Shown piece by piece: positions 2,687-55,682 of a stretch of 64,000 nucleotides of DNA. Below the pieces are notes generated by a model. That model was not told the origin of the DNA, did no database searches, and was given only the letters and a program-made list of their open reading frames with translations. The translations under genes were made by a program, and so were the position numbers. The stretch is from a virus. Lineage: Duplodnaviria; Caudoviricetes. The stretch lies in the IMG/VR virus record IMGVR_UViG_3300033066_000778, positions 64,001 through 128,000 of that record. One strand, given 5' to 3'. Position 1 is the stretch's first letter. Each line of letters starts with the position of its first letter.

Positions 2687-4354
2687 TTAAGACGCACGAG
2701 AATAACTGAGGCTCTTGGAGAGCTTCTTAGCTAGAGAAAGACCATAATCGGATACACTGTTGGATTCATTAAGTTTCGCTACAGAACCTTCGATGTTCTG
2801 AACTGACTCAGTGAGTTCCTTCTTTTCCTGCCTCATGCCCTTAACAGAAGCCATACCCATGATTGCTTCGTCAATAGCTTTCTTGGTAGGTGAACGCTGA
2901 ATTGCTTCAGCAATGACCTTACGTGCAGCATTGTTGTCCTTTAGACCAGCCTTATCAAGCTCTTGTAGAGCATAGACTTTGGCAGCTAGGAGACGATGAC
3001 GAGTCTGTAGTTCATCAAAGGTTTCTACAAGCTTGTCATAATTTGCACGAAGATCGGAGTCCTCAGAAAGAACGATTTTTCCGGTTTTTGCGCCTTCTTC
3101 AATCTTTTCTTGAAGCTTCTCAACAACGCGGGAATACGCTTGATTCTCAGTCGTTCTACGATCATGCTCAACAAGATAAGCGGCAGCAAATGCACGAGCT
3201 ACAGCATTGTTTTCAGTTTCCTGAAGCTGAACAAGTGTAAGTGCGATATTGGTTAGGGCTTGAACGCGGGTATCTTCGTCAACTTCTGATTCATCTTCAC
3301 GGCCTTCCATGAAGTTGTTTACAGAGTTATTGATGTCAGCAAGAACGCCAGCGTCGCCGGGGTTAATAGCCCAACCTTCACCTGGAGGTGGAGGAGGCTC
3401 CATAGGAACGGTACGAACGAAACCTTGATCGGCAGACCCCTGCGTATCTTCTTTTACGTCCTCGTCCTTTTCACCCTTCTTCTTTTTCTTCTTCTTTTTC
3501 TTATCCTCGTCGTCGTCCTCATCCTCGTCAGACTCATCGTCTTTCTTCTGGAATGGGAACTCTTCAACTAAGTCGAACTTAATTCCGTTGCGCTTAGTGT
3601 TGAGGTTGTGGATAAGAGATTCAGTAAGTCCGCGAAGTTCAGGGGCCTCAGAGCTTAGTTTGGTTAGTTCGATAACCAAGTCAGTAATCGTAGATTCAAC
3701 AAAGGGCTTCGTTGATTCATTTAGATCATTGCTCTTGAGGCAAAGAACAGTAGCAGCCTTCTGCTCAAGGTAATTTAACTTTTCCCTTGCACTCATGTAA
3801 TTCTCCTGTATTTCTTTAATTTCTTCATTTTCTGTAGATTCACTAATTACTTTGGGATAGGCACCTGGAGTTGAAGGAGCAGCTACAAAGTCAAAAGTTA
3901 AAAGCTTGAAGTCAGATTCCTGTACGATGAAAGTTCCGTCTGGTCCTTTAGTCAAAGAACCCTTAGCGCGTGAAGAAATACCAACTGGTACTCCCGCTTC
4001 TAAGAGTTCTTTAATCAACTTACCATCTTCTGTTTCTAGGATTTCTGCTTTACCAATTACTGTTCCATCTTGCATCATCTCAAGGAATGTGATAATGTGA
4101 GAGGCACCTTTTAACCTTGGCGTAGAATCTGCTGGGTGATCGACGTTACCCAACATTCTTTTTGTTTCTAGGCATTCAAGAATGTTTCGATCCTTTAGGA
4201 CGTTCTCCCAAAGTTTCCGTGGATAAATACGACCGTTTGCGTTTTTTACGTCTGCTTTTTGAAATACTCCTTCAACGACAAGTCTCCCGTTCCCCGATGA
4301 GTTCTCAAGAATCTTCGGAGTGAAAGAAATTGTGTCAACTAGTAATTCAGCCAT
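2687..4354 (-). CDS. Prohead protease (T4 gp21-like) fused to scaffold-like C-terminal region
   Basis: EGVFQKA..KNANGRIYP, G..DHP, SH.I, VGISSRAKGS, TFDFVAAPSTPGAY; long helical/acidic tail. Confidence 0.92.
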   Translation of the reverse strand: MAELLVDTISFTPKILENSSGNGRLVVEGVFQKADVKNANGRIYPRKLWENVLKDRNILECLETKRMLGNVDHPADSTPRLKGASHIITFLEMMQDGTVIGKAEILETEDGKLIKELLEAGVPVGISSRAKGSLTKGPDGTFIVQESDFKLLTFDFVAAPSTPGAYPKVISESTENEEIKEIQENYMSAREKLNYLEQKAATVLCLKSNDLNESTKPFVESTITDLVIELTKLSSEAPELRGLTESLIHNLNTKRNGIKFDLVEEFPFQKKDDESDEDEDDDEDKKKKKKKKKGEKDEDVKEDTQGSADQGFVRTVPMEPPPPPGEGWAINPGDAGVLADINNSVNNFMEGREDESEVDEDTRVQALTNIALTLVQLQETENNAVARAFAAAYLVEHDRRTTENQAYSRVVEKLQEKIEEGAKTGKIVLSEDSDLRANYDKLVETFDELQTRHRLLAAKVYALQELDKAGLKDNNAARKVIAEAIQRSPTKKAIDEAIMGMASVKGMRQEKKELTESVQNIEGSVAKLNESNSVSDYGLSLAKKLSKSLSYSRAS

Positions 4355-8318: not shown

Positions 8319-10100
8319 CTAAAATGTCCACTCACCTGTGATTTGTCCAAACCACTCTGTTGCATTTATAGCAGTTAACTTGATAATGGACCCTACGAAG
8401 TTTGATGTAATACTTCCCCCAGGTGCAGTCACTGAAGCCGCTACACGAATCGTGTCACCTGTAGCTGCTGTAACAGTTACTGTTTGAGCAGCTTGTACTG
8501 CAATTGTGTATTCAAGACCAGCTACTGCTGAAGGAAGTGTAATAGTACTTCCATCCGCATCACCTTCATTGGTATAAACCGTCCTTGAATCCGTTGCTGC
8601 TGGTGTTGCTGTTCCTGTATTTGGGGTTACTTTGACTTGAGCGAAAGTAGGTCCATTTAAGTAAATTCCGCATGTACTCTCTAAGGAAATTCCGCCTCCA
8701 CCATTACCACTCTCTAAGGAAATTCCGCCTCCACCATTACCAATCTTGATTCTTTCCCGTGTCAGGGAACTGTGGGCAGATAACGTTAGATACCCCGTCC
8801 CCAAAGTATAAATACTAGGAGTAGTACTTTCCTGAGAAACAATTAGTGATCCATACCCCGTTGAACCATCAGTGACTTTTACAACACCAGCTGAGGAACG
8901 GGCTAGACCAACGTCTTGAGAATTTCCAAAGATGATTCCATCATTGGGGATATCGACAGTAATGGCAACATGGCTGCCAGTATCAGCAAAGTAAGCGTAC
9001 TGTGGAGATGAGATTATGGGTATAACGGTTGGCCCACTGACGTATATGTTGTAACCGTAGTGATTATCACCACAACCAAAACCAAGTGTTCCAATAGTAC
9101 CTTGTTTAATGGCTGCAACTTCAACCCCTTCACATAGGAAGGATACGTGTTTAGTGCTGTTTGGTACATTGACATCAACCTGTCCAGTACCAGCAACTTT
9201 GAACACCGTAGCAGTAGTACTGTCTATGATCTCAAATGGACTAGCAGTCTGAGCCGCTGTCATTCCAAGACGTAGGTTTGGTTTCGTTGTGTACCCAACG
9301 GCAGGAATTTCCATTACAGGAGTAGTGTTGGCTTCTGTACTGAATGTTATGAAGTTAGCGGAGTTTGTTCCAAATGCTGCAGTTGTCGATGTGAAAATGT
9401 GGGGAATACCGTTAAAGAACCCATAACCGTTATAGACAGTAGTGGAAGCAAACGCGGTTCCTGCAAACATTCCAGGGCCTAGACTGTTGTAACCTAAGTT
9501 TAGGTATTCATCTCCAGCGTATTTGAGACTAAGCCACTTTGAAGATAATGCGGGATTCAGTGTTATGGTATCTGTTCCGCCTAATGTAGTTCCATTTATC
9601 CAATAAGCCATTTGATTTGCAGTGCCAGATCCAAGAATCCCTGATGCCGCTGCTAGTGTTTTCCAGTGAGCATTATCTGTTGCAGGGGATTCAGCTAGGA
9701 TATAAGTAAACCCATTATCCGTTTGAATGGCAACGTCGCCAACCTGAACATTTAGACCTAGACGCTCTGCTTGAGTTGTTACAACGTATGTATCTGAAAT
9801 TGCTAATTGAGGTAATTGATCTAAATCAAGTTTACCTGTAGCGTCTAATGTAGCTAAACCTTCTGGTACTGCTGGGTACATGTCAGCACCAGTTACAGTT
9901 TCAACGTAATCGTAAACTAAATCTGTAATAGGGTCTACAACAATATCGTTACCAACAGATGTCAGTCCATATTTTTCATACTCAGGTAAATAAAAGTTAC
10001 CACTAACATACTTTCCTGGTTTAACGATAATACCCGGAATTTTATATCCAGGTACAGAAAGTGTGTATAGATTATCGTTTCTAAAGAATGCTTTTGCCAT
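8319..10100 (-). CDS. Head/tail fibre-like protein
   Basis: Shared N-module, GLATLDATGKL and GDVAIQTD fibre motifs, shared C-terminal beta domain. Confidence 0.75.
   Translation of the reverse strand: MAKAFFRNDNLYTLSVPGYKIPGIIVKPGKYVSGNFYLPEYEKYGLTSVGNDIVVDPITDLVYDYVETVTGADMYPAVPEGLATLDATGKLDLDQLPQLAISDTYVVTTQAERLGLNVQVGDVAIQTDNGFTYILAESPATDNAHWKTLAAASGILGSGTANQMAYWINGTTLGGTDTITLNPALSSKWLSLKYAGDEYLNLGYNSLGPGMFAGTAFASTTVYNGYGFFNGIPHIFTSTTAAFGTNSANFITFSTEANTTPVMEIPAVGYTTKPNLRLGMTAAQTASPFEIIDSTTATVFKVAGTGQVDVNVPNSTKHVSFLCEGVEVAAIKQGTIGTLGFGCGDNHYGYNIYVSGPTVIPIISSPQYAYFADTGSHVAITVDIPNDGIIFGNSQDVGLARSSAGVVKVTDGSTGYGSLIVSQESTTPSIYTLGTGYLTLSAHSSLTRERIKIGNGGGGISLESGNGGGGISLESTCGIYLNGPTFAQVKVTPNTGTATPAATDSRTVYTNEGDADGSTITLPSAVAGLEYTIAVQAAQTVTVTAATGDTIRVAASVTAPGGSITSNFVGSIIKLTAINATEWFGQITGEWTF
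8676..8741. repeat. Perfect 33-bp in-frame tandem duplication (GNGGGGISLES x2)
   Basis: actctctaaggaaattccgcctccaccattacc at 8676-8708 and 8709-8741. Confidence 0.95.
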
Positions 10101-10103
10101 CTG

Positions 10104-10436
10104 TTACTCACTATTGAAAGTTGTTCGAGGCTTCTTTTCTTTTACAGGAGGTTCTTGTCCTTTTATCATCTTAACTTTTTTACTGACTTTTCTCGACACA
10201 GTTTTATCTGAAGGGATGGAATTGATTGGACCCCAAAGGTTACCGGCTAAAGTATCACCGATGTCTACTATAATAGACGCGATTAAAGGACGGGTTTTGG
10301 GGTTCTTATAGCGAAGGCGTATAACATTGATAACGATTTTCGCTATAAAGAAACCAATAATTACATTCGGGTGTTTTTGCAGAAAGGCAATAACAACCGT
10401 AGTAAAATCAATTTGGTTAAGAACAGCTGGATCCAT
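10104..10436 (-). CDS. Putative holin-like membrane protein
   Basis: Hydrophobic N-half, basic C-tail. Confidence 0.45.
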   Translation of the reverse strand: MDPAVLNQIDFTTVVIAFLQKHPNVIIGFFIAKIVINVIRLRYKNPKTRPLIASIIVDIGDTLAGNLWGPINSIPSDKTVSRKVSKKVKMIKGQEPPVKEKKPRTTFNSE

Positions 10437-10651
10437 TATCCTGGTATAACCTCATGCTTTTTGAAGATGGCTTCGGCAGCATCTTGACGCTGTTTAGTCT
10501 CTTCTGGTGTTTCCCCGGCTACCTGTGACATAAGAGGAATAAGCCCTTGGATGATTGGGGCGATATGTATCTCTAGATCAGGTTTACGAATTACAGCTTT
10601 GATTAAAATATCAGCCGCTTGTCCAATTAGGAAAAGTAGAATAGGACTCAT
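10436..10651 (-). CDS. Hypothetical protein
   Basis: Coupled ORF. Confidence 0.65.
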   Translation of the reverse strand: MSPILLFLIGQAADILIKAVIRKPDLEIHIAPIIQGLIPLMSQVAGETPEETKQRQDAAEAIFKKHEVIPG

Positions 10652-11052
10652 TATTTGTTCTCCTTCTTAACTGGAGGGTTTACAACAAGGTCTGGTCCAC
10701 CATTGGCTTTTACCAAAGTCGTTAAACTGATTAAGAGCTTCTGTAAGGCATCGAACTGAACGGATAGGTCATTTGTCTTTCCAGCCTTGTAAAGCTGTAA
10801 GGCACTATCGGTTGCTCGATAAGTATCAGGAAAGTTCTTATGAACAAACTTAAATACATTCTTTGTATCTTCAGAAAGCTTTAAGTAGTTCTGCTCGTAC
10901 CAATCCATACCTTCGTCATAGATTATTGTACTACCTTTTAAAGTTTGTTCTACTTTAATTACTAGTTTGTCTTCACCAGGATTTGGTGGTAAGCACCCAA
11001 TAAGGAAAATAGGAAGAAGTAAAGCTATGATGTACCTTTGTGCTGTTTTCAT
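10651..11052 (-). CDS. Lipoprotein (possibly lysis accessory)
   Basis: Lipobox-like LLPIFLIGC after basic N-terminus. Confidence 0.6.
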   Translation of the reverse strand: MKTAQRYIIALLLPIFLIGCLPPNPGEDKLVIKVEQTLKGSTIIYDEGMDWYEQNYLKLSEDTKNVFKFVHKNFPDTYRATDSALQLYKAGKTNDLSVQFDALQKLLISLTTLVKANGGPDLVVNPPVKKENK

Positions 11053-11060
11053 ATAAGTCC

Positions 11061-12377
11061 TTAGTACGTAATAGGAATTCTTATTTTAGATAGGTTAATT
11101 GATGCTGTTTGAGTTCCGTCAGAAGCTAATCTTGCGTAAAGAGCAAAGTATCTTCCCGTACCGCTCACGGTTACAGAGCCAGCAGCTTGATAAGTACTTG
11201 CAGCAGGAGAAGGAGATCCGCCTCTTACAGCGCTATATGTAACAGTACCTAAATCTCTATACCGTGTATTTGTAGCATTAACCAACGCATTTTGAATATC
11301 CGTATTAGATATTGTTGTACCAGAAGCTGTAAGATCTACAGAAGCAACTAGAGTTACATCAGTACTTGCAGCAAAACCAGCCGCAGAATCGCCTGGAATA
11401 CTTATTCCTCTATTACCTGGATACATACTGCTGTAATAATCTTTAAAATAACTTACTTCTCCTGTTGGAGTTCCAGTACCTGACCCTCTAAACAAAGAAA
11501 ATCCAAAAGCTATTGCTCCATTTATGCGTCGTGTTGCAGTTGCGAAAACAATATTATTTTCTGCTATTTTTACCCAAGAAGAAGGAGAAGTAGGTGGAGT
11601 TGTTACAGCATCTACGGAAACAGCTAGCCCTATATTAGATCCATTTTTCCATGCCCAAACCCATTCAGCTTGATCATCGGCCGCCGTTATATTCGTAAAA
11701 GAAGAAGTGTCTACTTGAGATCCAACTCCGTAACCATTTCTATAAATATCTGTCCGCACCATTGACGCTACATCTGTAGGGTCAGCAACAATAAAAGCCA
11801 TTCCTGTAGAAGTATCACTTGCTTGTAAACAATGAATACGTGCTATACAAGAATAATCATCGTTGTAACTTATCAACTTATGGAGTAACGGTGCAGTACC
11901 TGCTCCGGACCACCAATCATATGATCCAGAAGCTGTTCCAACTAAGTGTAATCTATTAGCAGTAGTAACATTTGCATCAATAGCAGAAAAATTAGTTGGA
12001 TTTTTTATAGTCCAACCTGTTCTAGGATTAGCTTTCGCATCAGCAATAGTTGTAGAAAAAATAGTCGTTGGAGCTAACTCTAGTAAATCTCCTGAATAAA
12101 GAGACCTATTAATTCCTGCTGGTAATGATCCTATTACATCTGGAAGAATGTAACCAAGAACTATTGAGGAGCCCGCGACAGGTGTATCCCATGTAACAGC
12201 ACCTGCTCCGTCTGTTTTTAGAAACTTGCCACCGTTTCCTGTTTGAGTAGGAAGAATGGAGGCTTGGGCGTCAGCCTGGGAAGTAGATCCTGTACCACCA
12301 TCAGTAACAGCGACAGTACCAGGAAGGTCTACTACACCACCCGTTGTGGTTAATCCGTATGTTTTAGTATCTGACAT
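11061..12377 (-). CDS. Fibre/decoration protein with lectin-like beta domain
   Basis: VTDGGTG and GKFLKTDGAGAVTW fibre motifs. Confidence 0.7.
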   Translation of the reverse strand: MSDTKTYGLTTTGGVVDLPGTVAVTDGGTGSTSQADAQASILPTQTGNGGKFLKTDGAGAVTWDTPVAGSSIVLGYILPDVIGSLPAGINRSLYSGDLLELAPTTIFSTTIADAKANPRTGWTIKNPTNFSAIDANVTTANRLHLVGTASGSYDWWSGAGTAPLLHKLISYNDDYSCIARIHCLQASDTSTGMAFIVADPTDVASMVRTDIYRNGYGVGSQVDTSSFTNITAADDQAEWVWAWKNGSNIGLAVSVDAVTTPPTSPSSWVKIAENNIVFATATRRINGAIAFGFSLFRGSGTGTPTGEVSYFKDYYSSMYPGNRGISIPGDSAAGFAASTDVTLVASVDLTASGTTISNTDIQNALVNATNTRYRDLGTVTYSAVRGGSPSPAASTYQAAGSVTVSGTGRYFALYARLASDGTQTASINLSKIRIPITY

Positions 12378-49759: not shown

Positions 49760-50024
49760 GACTCAAATAATAGATATTAGCACATTGTTTAGAACAGAAG
49801 TATAGTCTACCCGAAGCATCACGTAAATGTCGTAAAGTATCAGGAATCCAGTAATTCTTAACCAAGGAAGTTTTAACCGTCATCTTAATACTGTAATTAC
49901 AACCGAACTTGGAGCAGGTTAAACAACTATACTCCCTTACCTTCCCTTTTCGGGGAACGCTGTAATGAGTGGTTGTTATCGTTTCGGTTTTATAATCCGT
50001 AATCATGTGAAAAGGTCTAGTCAT
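49752..50024 (-). CDS. Zn-finger array member 1
   Basis: CLTC...FCSKQCANIYYL. Confidence 0.8.
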   Translation of the reverse strand: MTRPFHMITDYKTETITTTHYSVPRKGKVREYSCLTCSKFGCNYSIKMTVKTSLVKNYWIPDTLRHLRDASGRLYFCSKQCANIYYLSHA

Positions 50025-50195
50025 CGCTCATAAATATATACCTGGGATTGTTAGTATTCCAGGTTTTTTTGTTTTTATCCTTTTAGCCCCTTGCTGCCCC
50101 CGAAGACCCCATACGCCCATTAACCCCTTTAATTACTTTTATATATCGCTTTTTAACTTGATTTCTAAAAACGACTCGTTAGGGGAAATGACCCG

Positions 50196-50226
50196 TTGAC
50201 ATCTGGGCATAGGGGGTAGCTAATTC
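50196..50226 (+). promoter_or_regulatory. Candidate rightward (early) promoter
   Basis: Perfect TTGACA at 50196-50201; -10 box poorly resolved within TAGCTAATT. Confidence 0.4.
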
Positions 50227-50230
50227 ATTG

Positions 50231-50787
50231 TCCCGGCGAACCGGGAGAGCAAGGGGCAGGTGTAGGTCACGGGCGGTTGAGAGGCCGTCTAGGGCTGACC
50301 CTGCCCAACACTGGCTCGCGCCACGATGAGGCGACAATCGTAGGCGCAGGATGTGTGTGTAAGTAAACCATCCGCCAGAACCCCCTTCCCAACATTGGAG
50401 GGGACTCTCTCTTCGCGGAGGTTAACAATCCGCGTAGTGACCCTAGCACAGATAGCGCCGGTATGGACTCACCGAACACCGTATGGTGAGGAAGTATCGG
50501 AGGTGACTAAAGGTAGTGTAAAGGTAGCACCTTACACTAGCGGTTCGTGGGGACTCCGAAACCCCAAATAACAAAAGGTTTTCTTTTTCAATGTCCTATC
50601 ACCCGATGGGGCGGTTAAGAACGCAGTGGTTTCAAGACCACAGTGTCATGCGTTCGACCATTGGGTGATAGGCTCACTCCAGGTAGCGTAACACAGCGAC
50701 GCCGTGCGATGGCGGGGGGACATAGACTAGCGACCTATGTCCCCTTTGTTGCGACGGGAGGATGGGACGAAACAGAGTTCGCCTGTA
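50231..50787 (+). ncRNA. Large multi-domain structured RNA of unknown class
   Basis: About 10 consecutive stems and junctions, e.g. tcccgg/ccggga, gggcagg/cctgccc, cctatcacccgatgg/ccattgggtgatagg, ggggacatag/ctatgtcccc; no credible ORF. Confidence 0.65.
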
Positions 50788-50818
50788 TGGCTTTGAAAAG
50801 CCACTGATGAGTCCCGTC
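50761..50818 (+). ncRNA. Hammerhead ribozyme, type II; predicted cleavage after A50787
   Basis: gatgggac-GAAA-cag..ctg-TA/tggctt-tgaa-aagcca-CTGATGA-gtcccgtc; complete core and three stems. Confidence 0.9.
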
Positions 50819-50845
50819 ATCAGACTGAAACGCAAGGAGGTTCCC

Positions 50846-51274
50846 ATGCGGAACCGCGCTTCCCTCATTGACCTGAACATCCTCGTGTCCTCCATCCCCG
50901 TGTCCGCCCCCGAGACCCGGCAGGGCCGGGTCTTCGCCGCCGCCTGGGCGAAGGCGGACGCGGCCTGCGTGGCGAGGCTGAAGGCGCGGCGGGCCGAGAT
51001 CTCCGCCGCGTGGGCGGAGAAGGAGCGGGCTGAGAAGAAGGAGCGGATCGCCGCCATCCAGGCGGCGAAGGACCGCGCTGAGGCGCGGCGGGCCGAGGCC
51101 CGGAAGGTCGGGGCGGCCCGGCTGCTGAAGGCCGAGATGGAGAGGCAGGAGGCACTCGCCCGCATCGAGGCGGGCGGGCTGCTCGATGCCATGAAGGGCA
51201 AGATCTCGGAGCCGGACGGCATCCGGCTCACCAAGGAGTTGGCGGACATGTTCGCCGCCTTCGGGGAGATCTGA
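50846..51274 (+). CDS. Ala/Arg/Glu-rich helical protein, first rightward gene
   Basis: AGGAGG RBS at 50835; very GC-rich codons. Confidence 0.8.
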   Translation: MRNRASLIDLNILVSSIPVSAPETRQGRVFAAAWAKADAACVARLKARRAEISAAWAEKERAEKKERIAAIQAAKDRAEARRAEARKVGAARLLKAEMERQEALARIEAGGLLDAMKGKISEPDGIRLTKELADMFAAFGEI

Positions 51275-51336
51275 TCTCCCCGAACAGCCACCTCACCGTT
51301 CGCAAGACCGGAACGATGTCGGTGGTCGAGAAGTAA

Positions 51337-51441
51337 ATGGAATTCATCGAGAGCAATCTGGTAGAGATTGCTTTCAGTCTGATAACGCTCATCGTGGCCT
51401 GTGCGTGCTATGTGGGCACAAAAGAAAATGAAGGAGAGTAA
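51337..51441 (+). CDS. 34-aa single-TM peptide (not in track)
   Basis: MEFIESNLVEIAFSLITLIVACACYVGTKENEGE*, stop abuts MYG1 start. Confidence 0.5.
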   Translation: MEFIESNLVEIAFSLITLIVACACYVGTKENEGE

Positions 51442-51442
51442 C

Positions 51443-52363
51443 ATGAACAAGATGAATTACGCGTTCGACGTGGACGCCCTGAACAACATGCCAGAGATCA
51501 CGCGGATTGGCACCCACAATGGCGTCTTCCATGCGGATGATGCCTTCGCGTGCGCGGTGCTGACCGCGCTGTGGCCGGATGTGTGGATCATCCGCACCAG
51601 GAACCCGAAGGATCTGGCCTCGTGCCAGCTTCGGGTGGATGTCGGTGCGAAGTACAACCCGGCGACGGGCGACTTCGACCACCATCAGGGGAAGATCCTA
51701 CGGGAGAATGGAATCCCATACTCCTCCTTCGGTCTGATCTGGAAGGAGTACGGGTGGCTCTTCTTCCCTGGCTGCCCTGAAGCCGCGAAGGAAATCGAAG
51801 AAGGGCTCGTCTATCAGGTTGACGCCACGGACTGTGGCTTCAGCCTCTTCACCCCTCTGACTGAGGAGGCGAAGTTCCCATACTCCGTCTCGTCCGTCAT
51901 CTCCTCCCTGAATCCGGGGTGGAATGAGGGAGGAGACTTCGATGCGAGTTTCGAGCAGGCTGTGAAGCTCGCCCGTCAGATCCTCTGGAGGGAGATCTCC
52001 CGCGCGAAGGGGACGCTGGAGGCCGAAGGGATCGTGAAGGATGCCCTTGCCAAGAGGGAGGATAAGCGGGTGTTGATACTCCCGCAGTTCTGCCCCTGGC
52101 AGGAGGTCGTCTCTTCCGACCCGGATGTCCTCTACGTCCTGTTCCCCTCCGAGACGGGGGACTGGCGCATCCAGACGGTGCCTGAAGAACCCGGCTCCTT
52201 CAAGGCACGGAAGAGCCTCCCGGCTGCGTGGGGTGCGAAGAGGGATATGGATCTCTTCTTCGCCACAGGGGTGGAGGACGCAATCTTCTGCCACCCAGGA
52301 TTGTTCATCGCGGGCTGCAAGTCCCGTGAAGGCGTCCTGAAGATGGCCGAGATGGCCCTGTAA
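51443..52363 (+). CDS. MYG1-family (DHH-like) exonuclease/hydrolase
   Basis: GTHNGVFHADD, VDVG..YNP...FDHHQ, SSFGLIW, FCHPGLF. Confidence 0.92.
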   Translation: MNKMNYAFDVDALNNMPEITRIGTHNGVFHADDAFACAVLTALWPDVWIIRTRNPKDLASCQLRVDVGAKYNPATGDFDHHQGKILRENGIPYSSFGLIWKEYGWLFFPGCPEAAKEIEEGLVYQVDATDCGFSLFTPLTEEAKFPYSVSSVISSLNPGWNEGGDFDASFEQAVKLARQILWREISRAKGTLEAEGIVKDALAKREDKRVLILPQFCPWQEVVSSDPDVLYVLFPSETGDWRIQTVPEEPGSFKARKSLPAAWGAKRDMDLFFATGVEDAIFCHPGLFIAGCKSREGVLKMAEMAL

Positions 52364-52446
52364 TCGGAGTGTCTGAGACATTCCACGAATTCAACCGCTG
52401 GTTTGACGAACTAGTCAACCAGATCAACAGAAAGAAGGAGTCTAAC

Positions 52447-52887
52447 ATGACGAAGATCAACACCCCCGCGATCGGCCACGGACCCGTCAGCCGCATCCCG
52501 CTCCCGGTCAAGGCCGGTGAGCACGTCGATCTCGATTTCTGGAGGATGCTGGGTGACCCGGCATTCGAGGGGGTGACCTTCCGGGTCCAGCGTGGGCTTC
52601 CGAGCGGATTCGAGGGGCCTGTGGCCGAGGCCCTGAAGGTGATCTACGGGAAGAAGATTGACGACACCTTCTTCCTGTCGATCTGGGCGGGTGAGGTGAA
52701 GCGGGAAGGAAAGACCCGCAAGAACGTCAACCTGAAGAAGGCTTCGACGGGAACTCCGACTGACCTTCCGGGTGTTGGGGCCATCCCTGTTGGGTACGGG
52801 GAGCACGACATCAGAATCCTCCTTCGCTGCATGTTGAGCGCGAAGGTTACGAACGACGATAAGAAGAACGATCAAGTCAACTTCTAA
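52447..52887 (+). CDS. Hypothetical protein, paralog of 53230
   Basis: AGGAG RBS; VQRGLP...FFLSIW. Confidence 0.8.
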   Translation: MTKINTPAIGHGPVSRIPLPVKAGEHVDLDFWRMLGDPAFEGVTFRVQRGLPSGFEGPVAEALKVIYGKKIDDTFFLSIWAGEVKREGKTRKNVNLKKASTGTPTDLPGVGAIPVGYGEHDIRILLRCMLSAKVTNDDKKNDQVNF

Positions 52888-52916
52888 CAAACCTTACAAA
52901 GAAAAGGAGTATAGAC

Positions 52917-53147
52917 ATGGCCCGTAAGACTGAACAGGAAAAGCGCAATGAAAGGCGGATTGCCAAGGTCCAAGAGCGGGTCATCGCGGCCCGTCGTCTC
53001 TGGTGGAACAAGGATGAAGAGGCAGGAATCTACAGGGAGAAGGGCTTCGTCGCCTACTCCCAACAGTTGAAAAGTGAAGCTGAAAAGCTTTACGAGGCTT
53101 ACCTCGATGAAGAGTCTCGCCTCTATGCCCTGAAGGGGAACAAGTAA
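52917..53147 (+). CDS. Hypothetical protein
   Basis: AGGAG RBS. Confidence 0.8.
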   Translation: MARKTEQEKRNERRIAKVQERVIAARRLWWNKDEEAGIYREKGFVAYSQQLKSEAEKLYEAYLDEESRLYALKGNK

Positions 53148-53218
53148 GGGCATAGGAATCGAACCCGTATCGTCGTCAGTAACAGCATCAAATAACAAAG
53201 TACAAAAAGCAGTCCTTA
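53145..53218 (+). repeat. Stem-enclosed GGAATCGAACC element, copy 1
   Basis: taagggc/gtcctta stem; core 53155-53165. Confidence 0.7.
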
Positions 53219-54470: not shown

Positions 54471-54826
54471 TGTTCTTTGATGTCGTTCCCCTCGATGTCA
54501 TGTATCGCCTTGAAGGGCTCTTTGCCCTTGATGAATACAAGTACGAACTAGATCCAGATGAGAAGTATGTTCAACTTGTATGCGATGATGACGTTGCATG
54601 GGAGCCCATTGAGTTTCAATACGTAACCCCAAAAGATCAATGGGATATCATGGGGTTAAGAGAAGCTCAACGGCTCTTTAATGAGCGTGAATACATGAAA
54701 GGATTAAGGATAACACAAGACTATGAGGATTACGGGACTGATGGAAACAGATGGTACTGGCCTGATGATCCACAATTCGATCTTGTAAAGCCAGGTAAGG
54801 AAAGAAGGATGCGTAGGTTTAAGTAA
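54470..54826 (+). CDS. Acidic hypothetical protein
   Basis: AGGAG RBS. Confidence 0.75.
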   Translation: MFFDVVPLDVMYRLEGLFALDEYKYELDPDEKYVQLVCDDDVAWEPIEFQYVTPKDQWDIMGLREAQRLFNEREYMKGLRITQDYEDYGTDGNRWYWPDDPQFDLVKPGKERRMRRFK

Positions 54827-54838
54827 AGTACGACTAAT

Positions 54839-54986
54839 AGGCGGATGGGAATCGAACCTTACGTATCCTTACATGTGCATAAACAGCTATAGCCCCTATG
54901 AAGGGGCTTAAATAGTATACGCACATTAAGAGTGTTTTAACTTTAGTATCTTAGGCTAATGATGTTATCACGGCCACATTCCGTCT
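54839..54986 (+). repeat. Stem-enclosed GGAATCGAACC element, copy 2
   Basis: aggcggatg/cattccgtct; core 54848-54858; nested atgtgc/gcacat and agcccc/ggggct. Confidence 0.7.
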
Positions 54987-55388
54987 TAGATCATTATGCT
55001 TATTTTACTTTAGTTTTAACTGAACTTTAAGTCATTAAGGATTAAGAGGGGCTTCGGGGTTAATGAACGCAATGTCAATGTTCCCGATTAGCTCTTTGAT
55101 CCTAATTACTTTGATTCATCTTCTCTTATGTATAAGTATCTAAGGTTACACATCACGGATTAAATAACATTGAACTTTCAAGTAACATGATTACAAACCT
55201 ATGTCGGCATGCCGACTTAAGGAGGTAATGGATGCATTGGTGTCCATTGGAGACATTGGCCCTTTCAATGCTCTTTAACCACTTTAATATCATTTGGATG
55301 GGCGTAAAGGAGTATATATACGTATTACGGAATAAAATTCTGTAATGACTGTATAGTTACAGTCCTTTCGCCTATCAAAACGAATGGA

Positions 55389-55454
55389 ATTAAAGGATTA
55401 GGGGATTAAAGGATTAGGGGATTAAAGGATTAGGGGATTAAAGGAAGTAAGGGG
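55389..55454 (+). repeat. 16-bp tandem repeat ATTAAAGGATTAGGGG x3 plus one variant
   Basis: 55389, 55405, 55421 exact; 55437-55454 variant ends at ATG. Confidence 0.95.
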
Positions 55455-55682
55455 ATGCGATATACATGGGATTTAACACCGATAGGTAGATGTAACCAAT
55501 ACTTCATATGTAAGGGAAAGGCACGAGAGTTTTCCTTACTGAAGGAGTATAACTACACTGCTTATTTCGTACGCGATTCTGGAGATAGCTACACAACGAC
55601 TGAATTCGGTGATTGGACAGAAGGATGTCTAATCATTACGTTCAAAAACGGAAGGGAAGTAAAGGAGTTAAGCTCATGTTGA
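55455..55682 (+). CDS. Hypothetical protein
   Basis: ORF after repeat. Confidence 0.55.
   Translation: MRYTWDLTPIGRCNQYFICKGKAREFSLLKEYNYTAYFVRDSGDSYTTTEFGDWTEGCLIITFKNGREVKELSSC

Follow-up and report, generated by a model that had tools for sequence, protein, structure and literature searches.

A candidate exchangeable 5′ leader next to a type II hammerhead ribozyme in the early region of a freshwater lake phage

Introduction

In phage T7, the early transcript opens with a leader of several hundred nucleotides, which is non-coding, contains tandem promoters, is neither GC-rich nor unusually folded, and is severed by host RNase III at site R0.3. RNA can also be cut by hammerhead ribozymes, whose established chemistry yields one product with a 2′,3′-cyclic phosphate end and another with a 5′-OH start. 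Hammerheads that flank or head genes have been published from phages and prophages, and in most hammerheads of type II a pseudoknot forms between loop I and the 3′ tail that follows stem II (Perreault et al. 2011, PMC3088659). Other systems that come close are the large phage RNAs GOLLD (RF01998) and ROOL (RF03087).

The locus described here, in an uncultured freshwater lake phage, has a folded non-coding segment and a type II hammerhead in front of the first rightward gene. The reading that we favor, whose chance of being right we put at about even, is that the segment constitutes an exchangeable, structured, untranslated 5′ leader of the rightward early transcript, located at the head of a hypervariable early region.

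Genomic setting

The record is that of an uncultured virus of 153,958 bp, and the window, that is, the whole stretch of 64,000 nt that was analysed, corresponds to its bases 64001–128000. The GC content of the window is ~40%, with an island of 55–61% GC at 50.2–53.5 kb. Leftward genes stop at 50024 and rightward genes begin at 50846, with the strand switch between them. The main features around it are as follows:

50140–50215 (+): AT-rich control block, with a TATATAT element, the near-palindrome AAAAACGACTCGT, GGGGAAATGACC, and TTGACA at 50196–50201
50216–50760 (+): body of the putative leader RNA, GC 0.50–0.64, non-coding and structured, unique to this phage
50761–50818 (+): type II hammerhead by core, stems, and descriptor, with a predicted cut after A50787
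50834–51274 (+): first early gene with its ribosome site, AAGGAGG at 50834–50840, start at 50846, encoding 142 aa, an Ala/Arg/Glu-rich coiled coil

Protein-anchored look-ups yielded three related contigs, L002, L086, and L084, the only relatives found. Two further contigs, L003 and L004, were considered as relatives on account of a MYG1 of 52% identity and set aside, as they represent a different phage without the leader locus.

The first early gene has a GC3 of up to 0.97 and N- and C-terminal motifs that recur in the first gene of L002. Downstream of it come, in order, a hydrophobic ORF of 34 codons, a hydrolase of the MYG1 family (PF03690, E = 1e-74), and a gene for 172 aa. The hydrophobic ORF (MEFIESNLVEIAFSLITLIVACACYVGTKENEGE) occupies 51337–51441, and the likely start of MYG1 is the ATG at 51444 behind GAAGGAG, not the GTG at 51401. 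In L003, an unrelated 167-kb phage contig, tRNA genes are found on both sides of MYG1, followed by a CCA-adding enzyme (9137–12372), a gene neighborhood that hints at phage MYG1 proteins acting on tRNA 3′ ends.

The GC-rich island forms a hypervariable mosaic early-gene region (window 50200–53155; L002:2890–8000; L084:1–3366; L086:398–4061), whose left border is the conserved control block and whose right border is an GGAATCGAACC element at 53155. Its genes differ among close relatives, with MYG1 in the window and a ribosomal L12-like gene plus an AAA_33 kinase in L084 and L086. Within this region, GC3 reaches 0.8–0.97, compared with 36–40% GC for the rest of the phage; given that the high GC3 of MYG1 is kept at 73% amino-acid identity, the GC content seems to have been maintained and not to be a recent import. 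The GGAATCGAACC element is the antisense of a tRNA T-arm and recurs intergenically, on the + strand, in all three relatives:

53155 and 54848 of the window; L002:6780, 8010, and 9094; L084:2101, 3367, 4931, 8723, and 11711; L086:2696 and 4048 (all +): GGAATCGAACC copies

A 630-nt AT-rich gap without genes (window 54826–55455) contains one such element along with a hairpin and, right before the next gene, GGATTAGGGGATTAAA in four tandem copies; it is 77% identical to L084, compared with ~70% for the flanking genes.

Control block and start of the transcript

The control block is 85–88% identical to the corresponding part of L086 (L086:10–397), and its core is also kept in L002, where it consists of AAAAACGACTCGT, 16 nt, and TTGGCC; in the window, the word AAAAACGACTCGT occurs a single time. 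Upstream of the control word, blocks of the TATATAT(C/T)GGTTTTT type are repeated three times in L002:2700–2860 and twice in L086:270–345, and could be tandem promoters or iterons. The TTGACA at 50196, after which the sequence-only reading placed the structured RNA, makes a weak promoter. In the candidate TTGACA-N17-GCTAAT (50196–50224), the −35 element matches at 6/6 positions, but the −10 element GCTAAT is poor, lacking A2, and a consensus scan for promoters of the sigma-70 type did not call it. At the −10 position, the relatives have GCTATA at the same spacing in L002 and TGAGCG in L086, where the element is thus not kept. The leader RNA may start upstream of 50231, within the conserved block. 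A hairpin that resembles a terminator and has a U run is located on the + strand at 50040–50074, separating the control block from the leftward first gene; in L086 its stem is retained and its loop altered. Its role may be to keep antisense transcripts out of the control region.

Coding potential and searches for known families

The claim that the segment is non-coding holds well. Every reading frame contains 9–14 stops, including all three kinds, and codon-phase GC periodicity is absent (range 0.03–0.19, compared with 0.30–0.47 in adjacent genes). The chance ORFs of the leader have no Pfam match, and at the protein level the stretch resembles none of the genes in the window or the relatives. 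Stops, lack of periodicity, and lack of protein homology together rule out an ordinary or recoded gene as well as a pseudogene.

As had been supposed from the lack of familiar hallmarks, a cmscan against Rfam (all 4227 families) gave no match at the gathering score and just a weak match to a type III hammerhead at E ≤ 10; the GOLLD and ROOL models did not match the leader at E ≤ 10. A tRNA or tmRNA-like module was likewise rejected, and the tRNA array of the phage lies 19 kb away. The leader is single-copy in the 154-kb genome, which rules out a template/variable repeat pair, and tandem repeats of the antitoxin-mimic type are absent from it, the only repeats being short two-copy ones. Neither a repeated motif nor a known aptamer was found in the leader. 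A loop motif, GUUUCAAG, considered as conserved with L002, was discarded since the genome has just one copy of it and the k-mer match does not exceed chance.

Homologs of the leader were found neither in INPHARED phages nor in IMG/VR, JGI metagenomes, or the protein-anchored contigs. Nothing useful resulted from blastn of the leader and the 14 kb around it against INPHARED phages, and the same was true of IMG/VR when it was scanned for MYG1 and the first gene as well as with alignments of the 172-aa and 85-aa genes. Of the 58 matches to the conserved control word in IMG/VR and the 21 to a stricter version of it in one scan of JGI metagenomes, all were chance. The window's own proteins are singletons in 90% clusters, and exact look-ups of the relatives' first genes added only identical contigs.

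Fold of the leader

The core of the sequence-only reading, a long, non-coding, and strongly folded + strand region that separates the first rightward gene from the control region, is borne out. The stretch 50225–50830 has a minimum free energy (MFE) of −265.9 kcal/mol on the + strand (z = −6.06 against dinucleotide shuffles) and of −226.4 kcal/mol on the − strand (z = −4.71). In 300-nt windows, z-scores are −5.7, −4.3, and −4.9 on the + strand and −1.1, −1.7, and −3.9 on the − strand, compared with about +0.7 in the AT-rich leftward genes. In 160-nt windows, all values across the leader are negative (z −1.3 to −3.7). Most helices of the MFE structure have a pair probability of 0.9–1.0, and G-U pairs favor the + strand as had been noticed, with 20 in its MFE structure against 14 in that of the − strand. 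The expected transcript is G-skewed and has many G runs.

All 15 stem pairs proposed beforehand are present at the expected places between 50231 and 50745, and the fold can be divided into three domains and a linker:

50230–50554 (+): domain 1, multibranch, ~325 nt, MFE helix probability 0.95–1.0, inverted repeat I1
50555–50594 (+): linker, A/U-rich and mostly single-stranded, weak pairing (p = 0.57), inverted repeat I3
50595–50672 (+): domain 2, a 15-bp helix around 7-bp and 6-bp helices, p = 1.00, inverted repeat I2 (93% complementary)
50677–50760 (+): domain 3, a junction with an 11-bp hairpin (50715–50725/50735–50745) and a 6-bp hairpin, p = 0.87–0.99

Domain 1 is closed by long-range helices (50230–50234/50550–50554, 50236–50242/50542–50548, and 50243–50249/50405–50411), to which one of the proposed hairpins, tcccgg/ccggga, loses in the MFE structure although its sequence is present. 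The 15-bp helix of domain 2 includes one G-U pair on the + strand that would be C-A on the − strand, and domain 3 is closed by helices 50677–50680/50757–50760 and 50687–50693/50747–50753.

Strong folding is not exclusive to the leader, as the GC-rich coding region downstream also folds strongly, with z −1.2 to −5.7 in 300-nt windows against dinucleotide shuffles. When synonymous-codon shuffles are used as the control, all rightward genes have z of about −2 to −3, whether GC-rich or of normal GC, and the GC-rich ones are therefore not clearly special in this respect.

Replacement of the leader among relatives

L002, whose MYG1 is 73% identical to that of the window, has the same strand switch and conserves the control block. 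Its leader (2890–3371) is 481 nt long, GC-rich, and non-coding, with z = −5.2, and no hammerhead was detected in it. L086 is the closest relative, with 85–88% identity over window 49891–50215, and the similarity ends at 50215. In L086, another leader follows there, and then, in order, another first gene, a variant hammerhead, and a homolog of the 172-aa gene. The leader of L086 (398–1089) is ~690 nt long, has 58–62% GC, is non-coding, and folds with z = −4.1 on the + strand and −3.1 on the − strand, its structure being patchy (z +1.5 to −4.4 in 160-nt windows). The hammerhead variant (L086:1299–1369, +) is of type II and scores 44.8 bits, with a core of CUGAAGA, in which position 7 is changed, and one extra U before stem II; it lies one gene farther downstream than that of the window, after the first small gene. 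L084 is 67–77% identical to the window from 53155 onward, and its first bases (1–111) match the 3′ end of the L086 leader with 87% identity, followed by yet another first gene. In the hairpin common to L086 and L084, 23/23 predicted pairs survive one compensatory change and two one-sided ones.

The leader bodies of the window, L086, and L002 share no local alignment or k-mers above chance. All three nevertheless have a G>C skew of +0.07 to +0.11, are 64–69% paired, and are 25–37 kcal/mol more stable on the + strand than on the − strand. Judging from the sequences compared, what is conserved is the place, the size class, and the physical character, not the sequence itself. Since the borders of homology coincide exactly with the leader start and with the point where leader and gene join, the leader behaves like a module. 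A new large RNA class of the GOLLD/ROOL kind, as the sequence-only reading had proposed, is not what these data suggest, because the leaders of the relatives are non-homologous, differ in length (481 and ~690 nt), and share k-mers at chance level. A new RNA family is not demonstrable here, and the leader appears to be a replaceable module.

The hammerhead and its class

The leader was expected to end at a ribozyme, and a complete type II hammerhead with a predicted cut at 50787/50788 is indeed located there. It is composed of stem II (50761–50768/50811–50818, 8 bp), GAAA (50769–50772), stem III (50772–50775/50783–50786, 4 bp), the GUA cleavage triplet (50785–50787), stem I (50788–50793/50798–50803, 6 bp), and CUGAUGA (50804–50810). 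The core displays C3-U4-G5-A6-N7-G8-A9, G12-A13-A14, the A15.1-U16.1 pair, and an NUH triplet, and the topology is that of type II, with stems I and III closed by loops and stem II open. The forced hammerhead fold has −22.7 kcal/mol compared with −25.0 kcal/mol for the local MFE. With a relaxed descriptor, this site alone was found in 1.5 Mb scanned, and no other hammerhead occurs in the 154-kb genome. The type II model of Rfam, RF02276, does not match it even at E ≤ 10, and Hammerhead_3 gives a weak match of 15.2 bits; a covariance model built from 55 unrelated IMG/VR type II hammerheads scores it at 39.3 bits (E = 2e-8).

At least 120 IMG/VR contigs bear a hammerhead with this stem II. Among 132 unique members of the class (stem II GGAC/GUCC, L089–L168), 66% have both a ribosome site and a start codon in the 40 nt downstream, and 33 have an AUCAG tail, compared with none of the control windows. 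This tail directly follows stem II and is able to pair with the catalytic CUGAU, which looks like a recurrent alternative hairpin of the class; the copy in the window has both the AUCAG tail and the ribosome site:

50804–50823 (+): competing hairpin CUGAUGA/UCAUCAG, p = 0.97 in the MFE structure, sequestering the catalytic core

Judged by sequence, the hammerhead is thus ordinary for its class, which is very common in phages and stands just before ribosome sites. The published picture of hammerheads that head genes in phage transcripts (PMC3088659) is in keeping with this. As the class is widespread at the heads of phage genes, the ribozyme looks like the 5′ boundary of the gene rather than part of the RNA upstream, and in this phage a gene-heading hammerhead reads as happening to abut the leader. 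Its release of the leader, central to the earlier interpretation, fares unevenly: the ribozyme is a genuine type II hammerhead at the predicted cut, but release is neither conserved nor defining, given that L002 has no hammerhead and that of L086 comes after the first gene.

A pseudoknot between loop I and the 3′ tail was not found, the tail GUCAUCAGACUGAAAC having no 4-bp complement to loop I (UUUGAAAA, 50793–50799). Loop I is complementary to UUUUCAA at 50585–50591, in the single-stranded linker 200 nt upstream, as well as to UUUCAA at 50631–50636, in a hairpin loop of domain 2, either of which could replace the missing pseudoknot; a 7-mer match of this kind would arise by chance in 560 nt with a probability of a few percent. 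Masking of the ribosome site in the uncut precursor is not clearly seen and no simple riboregulation is visible, and masking by the leader was rejected on this ground.

Discussion

If the segment is an untranslated early leader, the early transcript would carry it from right after the conserved control block to the first gene, and the related phages would keep a leader of 0.5–0.7 kb that is GC-rich, G-skewed, and about two-thirds base-paired without keeping its sequence. Selection would then act on bulk properties and apparently not on any specific catalytic or ligand-binding fold; compact folding may let a long untranslated RNA escape Rho-dependent termination and endonuclease attack. In the cell, the type II hammerhead would cut after A50787, producing a free leader of ~560–640 nt with a 2′,3′-cyclic phosphate end and an mRNA with a 5′-OH, on which two hairpins, the second of them the CUGAUGA/UCAUCAG hairpin, would stand just before the exposed ribosome site. 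This picture does not account for the need for 0.5–0.7 kb, and the very well-defined fold, along with ribozyme-mediated release, would also be compatible with a functional RNA in free form.

The alternatives have to be weighed against what was observed: the signal of folding, the lack of coding, a position that is conserved although the sequence in it is replaced, and the hammerhead's membership of its class. Such a free RNA could be a discrete trans-acting molecule of ~560 nt, stable and compact, released by the hammerhead and active early in infection. It might, for instance, be a decoy or sponge that occupies a host RNA-binding factor or defense, and would evolve rapidly or be swapped because the target differs between hosts. 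We regard this explanation as unlikely. Its attractions are the highly defined multi-domain fold with z of −6 and a strand bias, the position of the genome's only hammerhead exactly at the 3′ end of the leader, the separation of the leader from the first gene as a module, and a location in a hypervariable early region of the kind that hosts host-takeover genes. Neither a homolog nor covariation nor a repeated motif or known aptamer was found to support it, the syntenic leaders are unrelated in sequence, and release is not conserved in the relatives, the hammerhead class normally just heading genes. A broader version, in which each lineage has a different, often replaced folded RNA of 0.5–0.7 kb that acts in trans as a host-specific decoy or inhibitor, here released by the hammerhead, would make the locus an RNA counterpart of hypervariable anti-defense protein loci. 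It would explain why position, size, and compact fold are kept while the sequence is not, and we consider it decidedly improbable.

The same lack of sequence conservation is what a functionless spacer or remnant would show, consisting of decayed gene cassettes or a donor 5′ UTR in a recombination hot spot and owing its structure to GC bias or composition. The whole island at 50.2–53.15 kb is GC-rich and mosaic between relatives, and GC-rich coding windows, too, have z −1.2 to −5.7. We find this origin quite unlikely, since coding traces are absent (there is neither residual codon periodicity nor protein-level similarity to neighboring or related genes) and a long leader is retained in every relative: all three complete leaders are held at 0.48–0.7 kb in an otherwise tightly packed genome. 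Moreover, their z-scores of −4 to −6 stand against composition-matched shuffles, with the + strand favored in all three, and the pairing of the L086/L084 hairpin survives substitutions. The preference for the + strand also bears on a very improbable explanation, by which the divergent control region houses a DNA-level or transcription-coupled element, such as an R-loop-primed replication origin formed from the G-rich transcript, with the RNA fold being incidental. The strand switch coincides with the minimum of the cumulative GC skew, repeated AT-rich blocks and the conserved near-palindromic word lie just upstream, and the transcript would be G-skewed with many G runs. However, gene orientation confounds the skew minimum, a + strand RNA is favored over a symmetric DNA structure by both the G-U pairs and the z-scores, and the 2′,3′-cyclic phosphate end left by a hammerhead cannot prime DNA synthesis.

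The reading as an exchangeable untranslated leader would imply that, in an AT-rich, T4-like group of lake phages, the early region is hypervariable and kept GC-rich, and that the long structured leader at its head is exchanged wholesale in sequence between close relatives, with break points exactly at module borders. If it is right, the main lesson is one of caution: a phage RNA may be long, well folded, without a family, and terminated by a ribozyme and still not represent a new ornate class.

Comparison with known systems

With GOLLD and ROOL, the leader has in common its size class (~0.5–0.8 kb), its being phage-encoded, and its many helices, and with GOLLD also a freshwater origin. It differs from them in that it matches neither model, does not adjoin tRNA genes, and represents no family conserved at the site.

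The hammerhead is much closer to the type II gene-heading hammerheads (PMC3088659; RF02276). It has the same complete core (CUGAUGA, GAAA, and the GUA triplet), the same position 18–30 nt before the ribosome site, and the same AUCAG-type tail, which is found in a quarter of the class. In contrast to the published examples (PMC3088659), the copy in the window lacks a match to RF02276 as well as the pseudoknot between loop I and the tail, and follows a non-coding leader of 0.55 kb rather than another gene.

The arrangement as a whole resembles that of T7. In both phages, a non-coding leader would head the early operon and be severed at a specific site from the mRNA of the first gene, leaving a structured 5′ end before the ribosome site. 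The two differ in the cutter, which is a host enzyme in T7 and would be the RNA itself here, and in the compact fold of the present leader, and there is no sequence relationship between them. Provided that our reading is correct, the locus would offer a clean natural case of a self-cleaving ribozyme in the role that RNase III has for the T7 early mRNA, and a convenient system for the roles of hammerhead-defined 5′ ends and long folded leaders in phage early expression.
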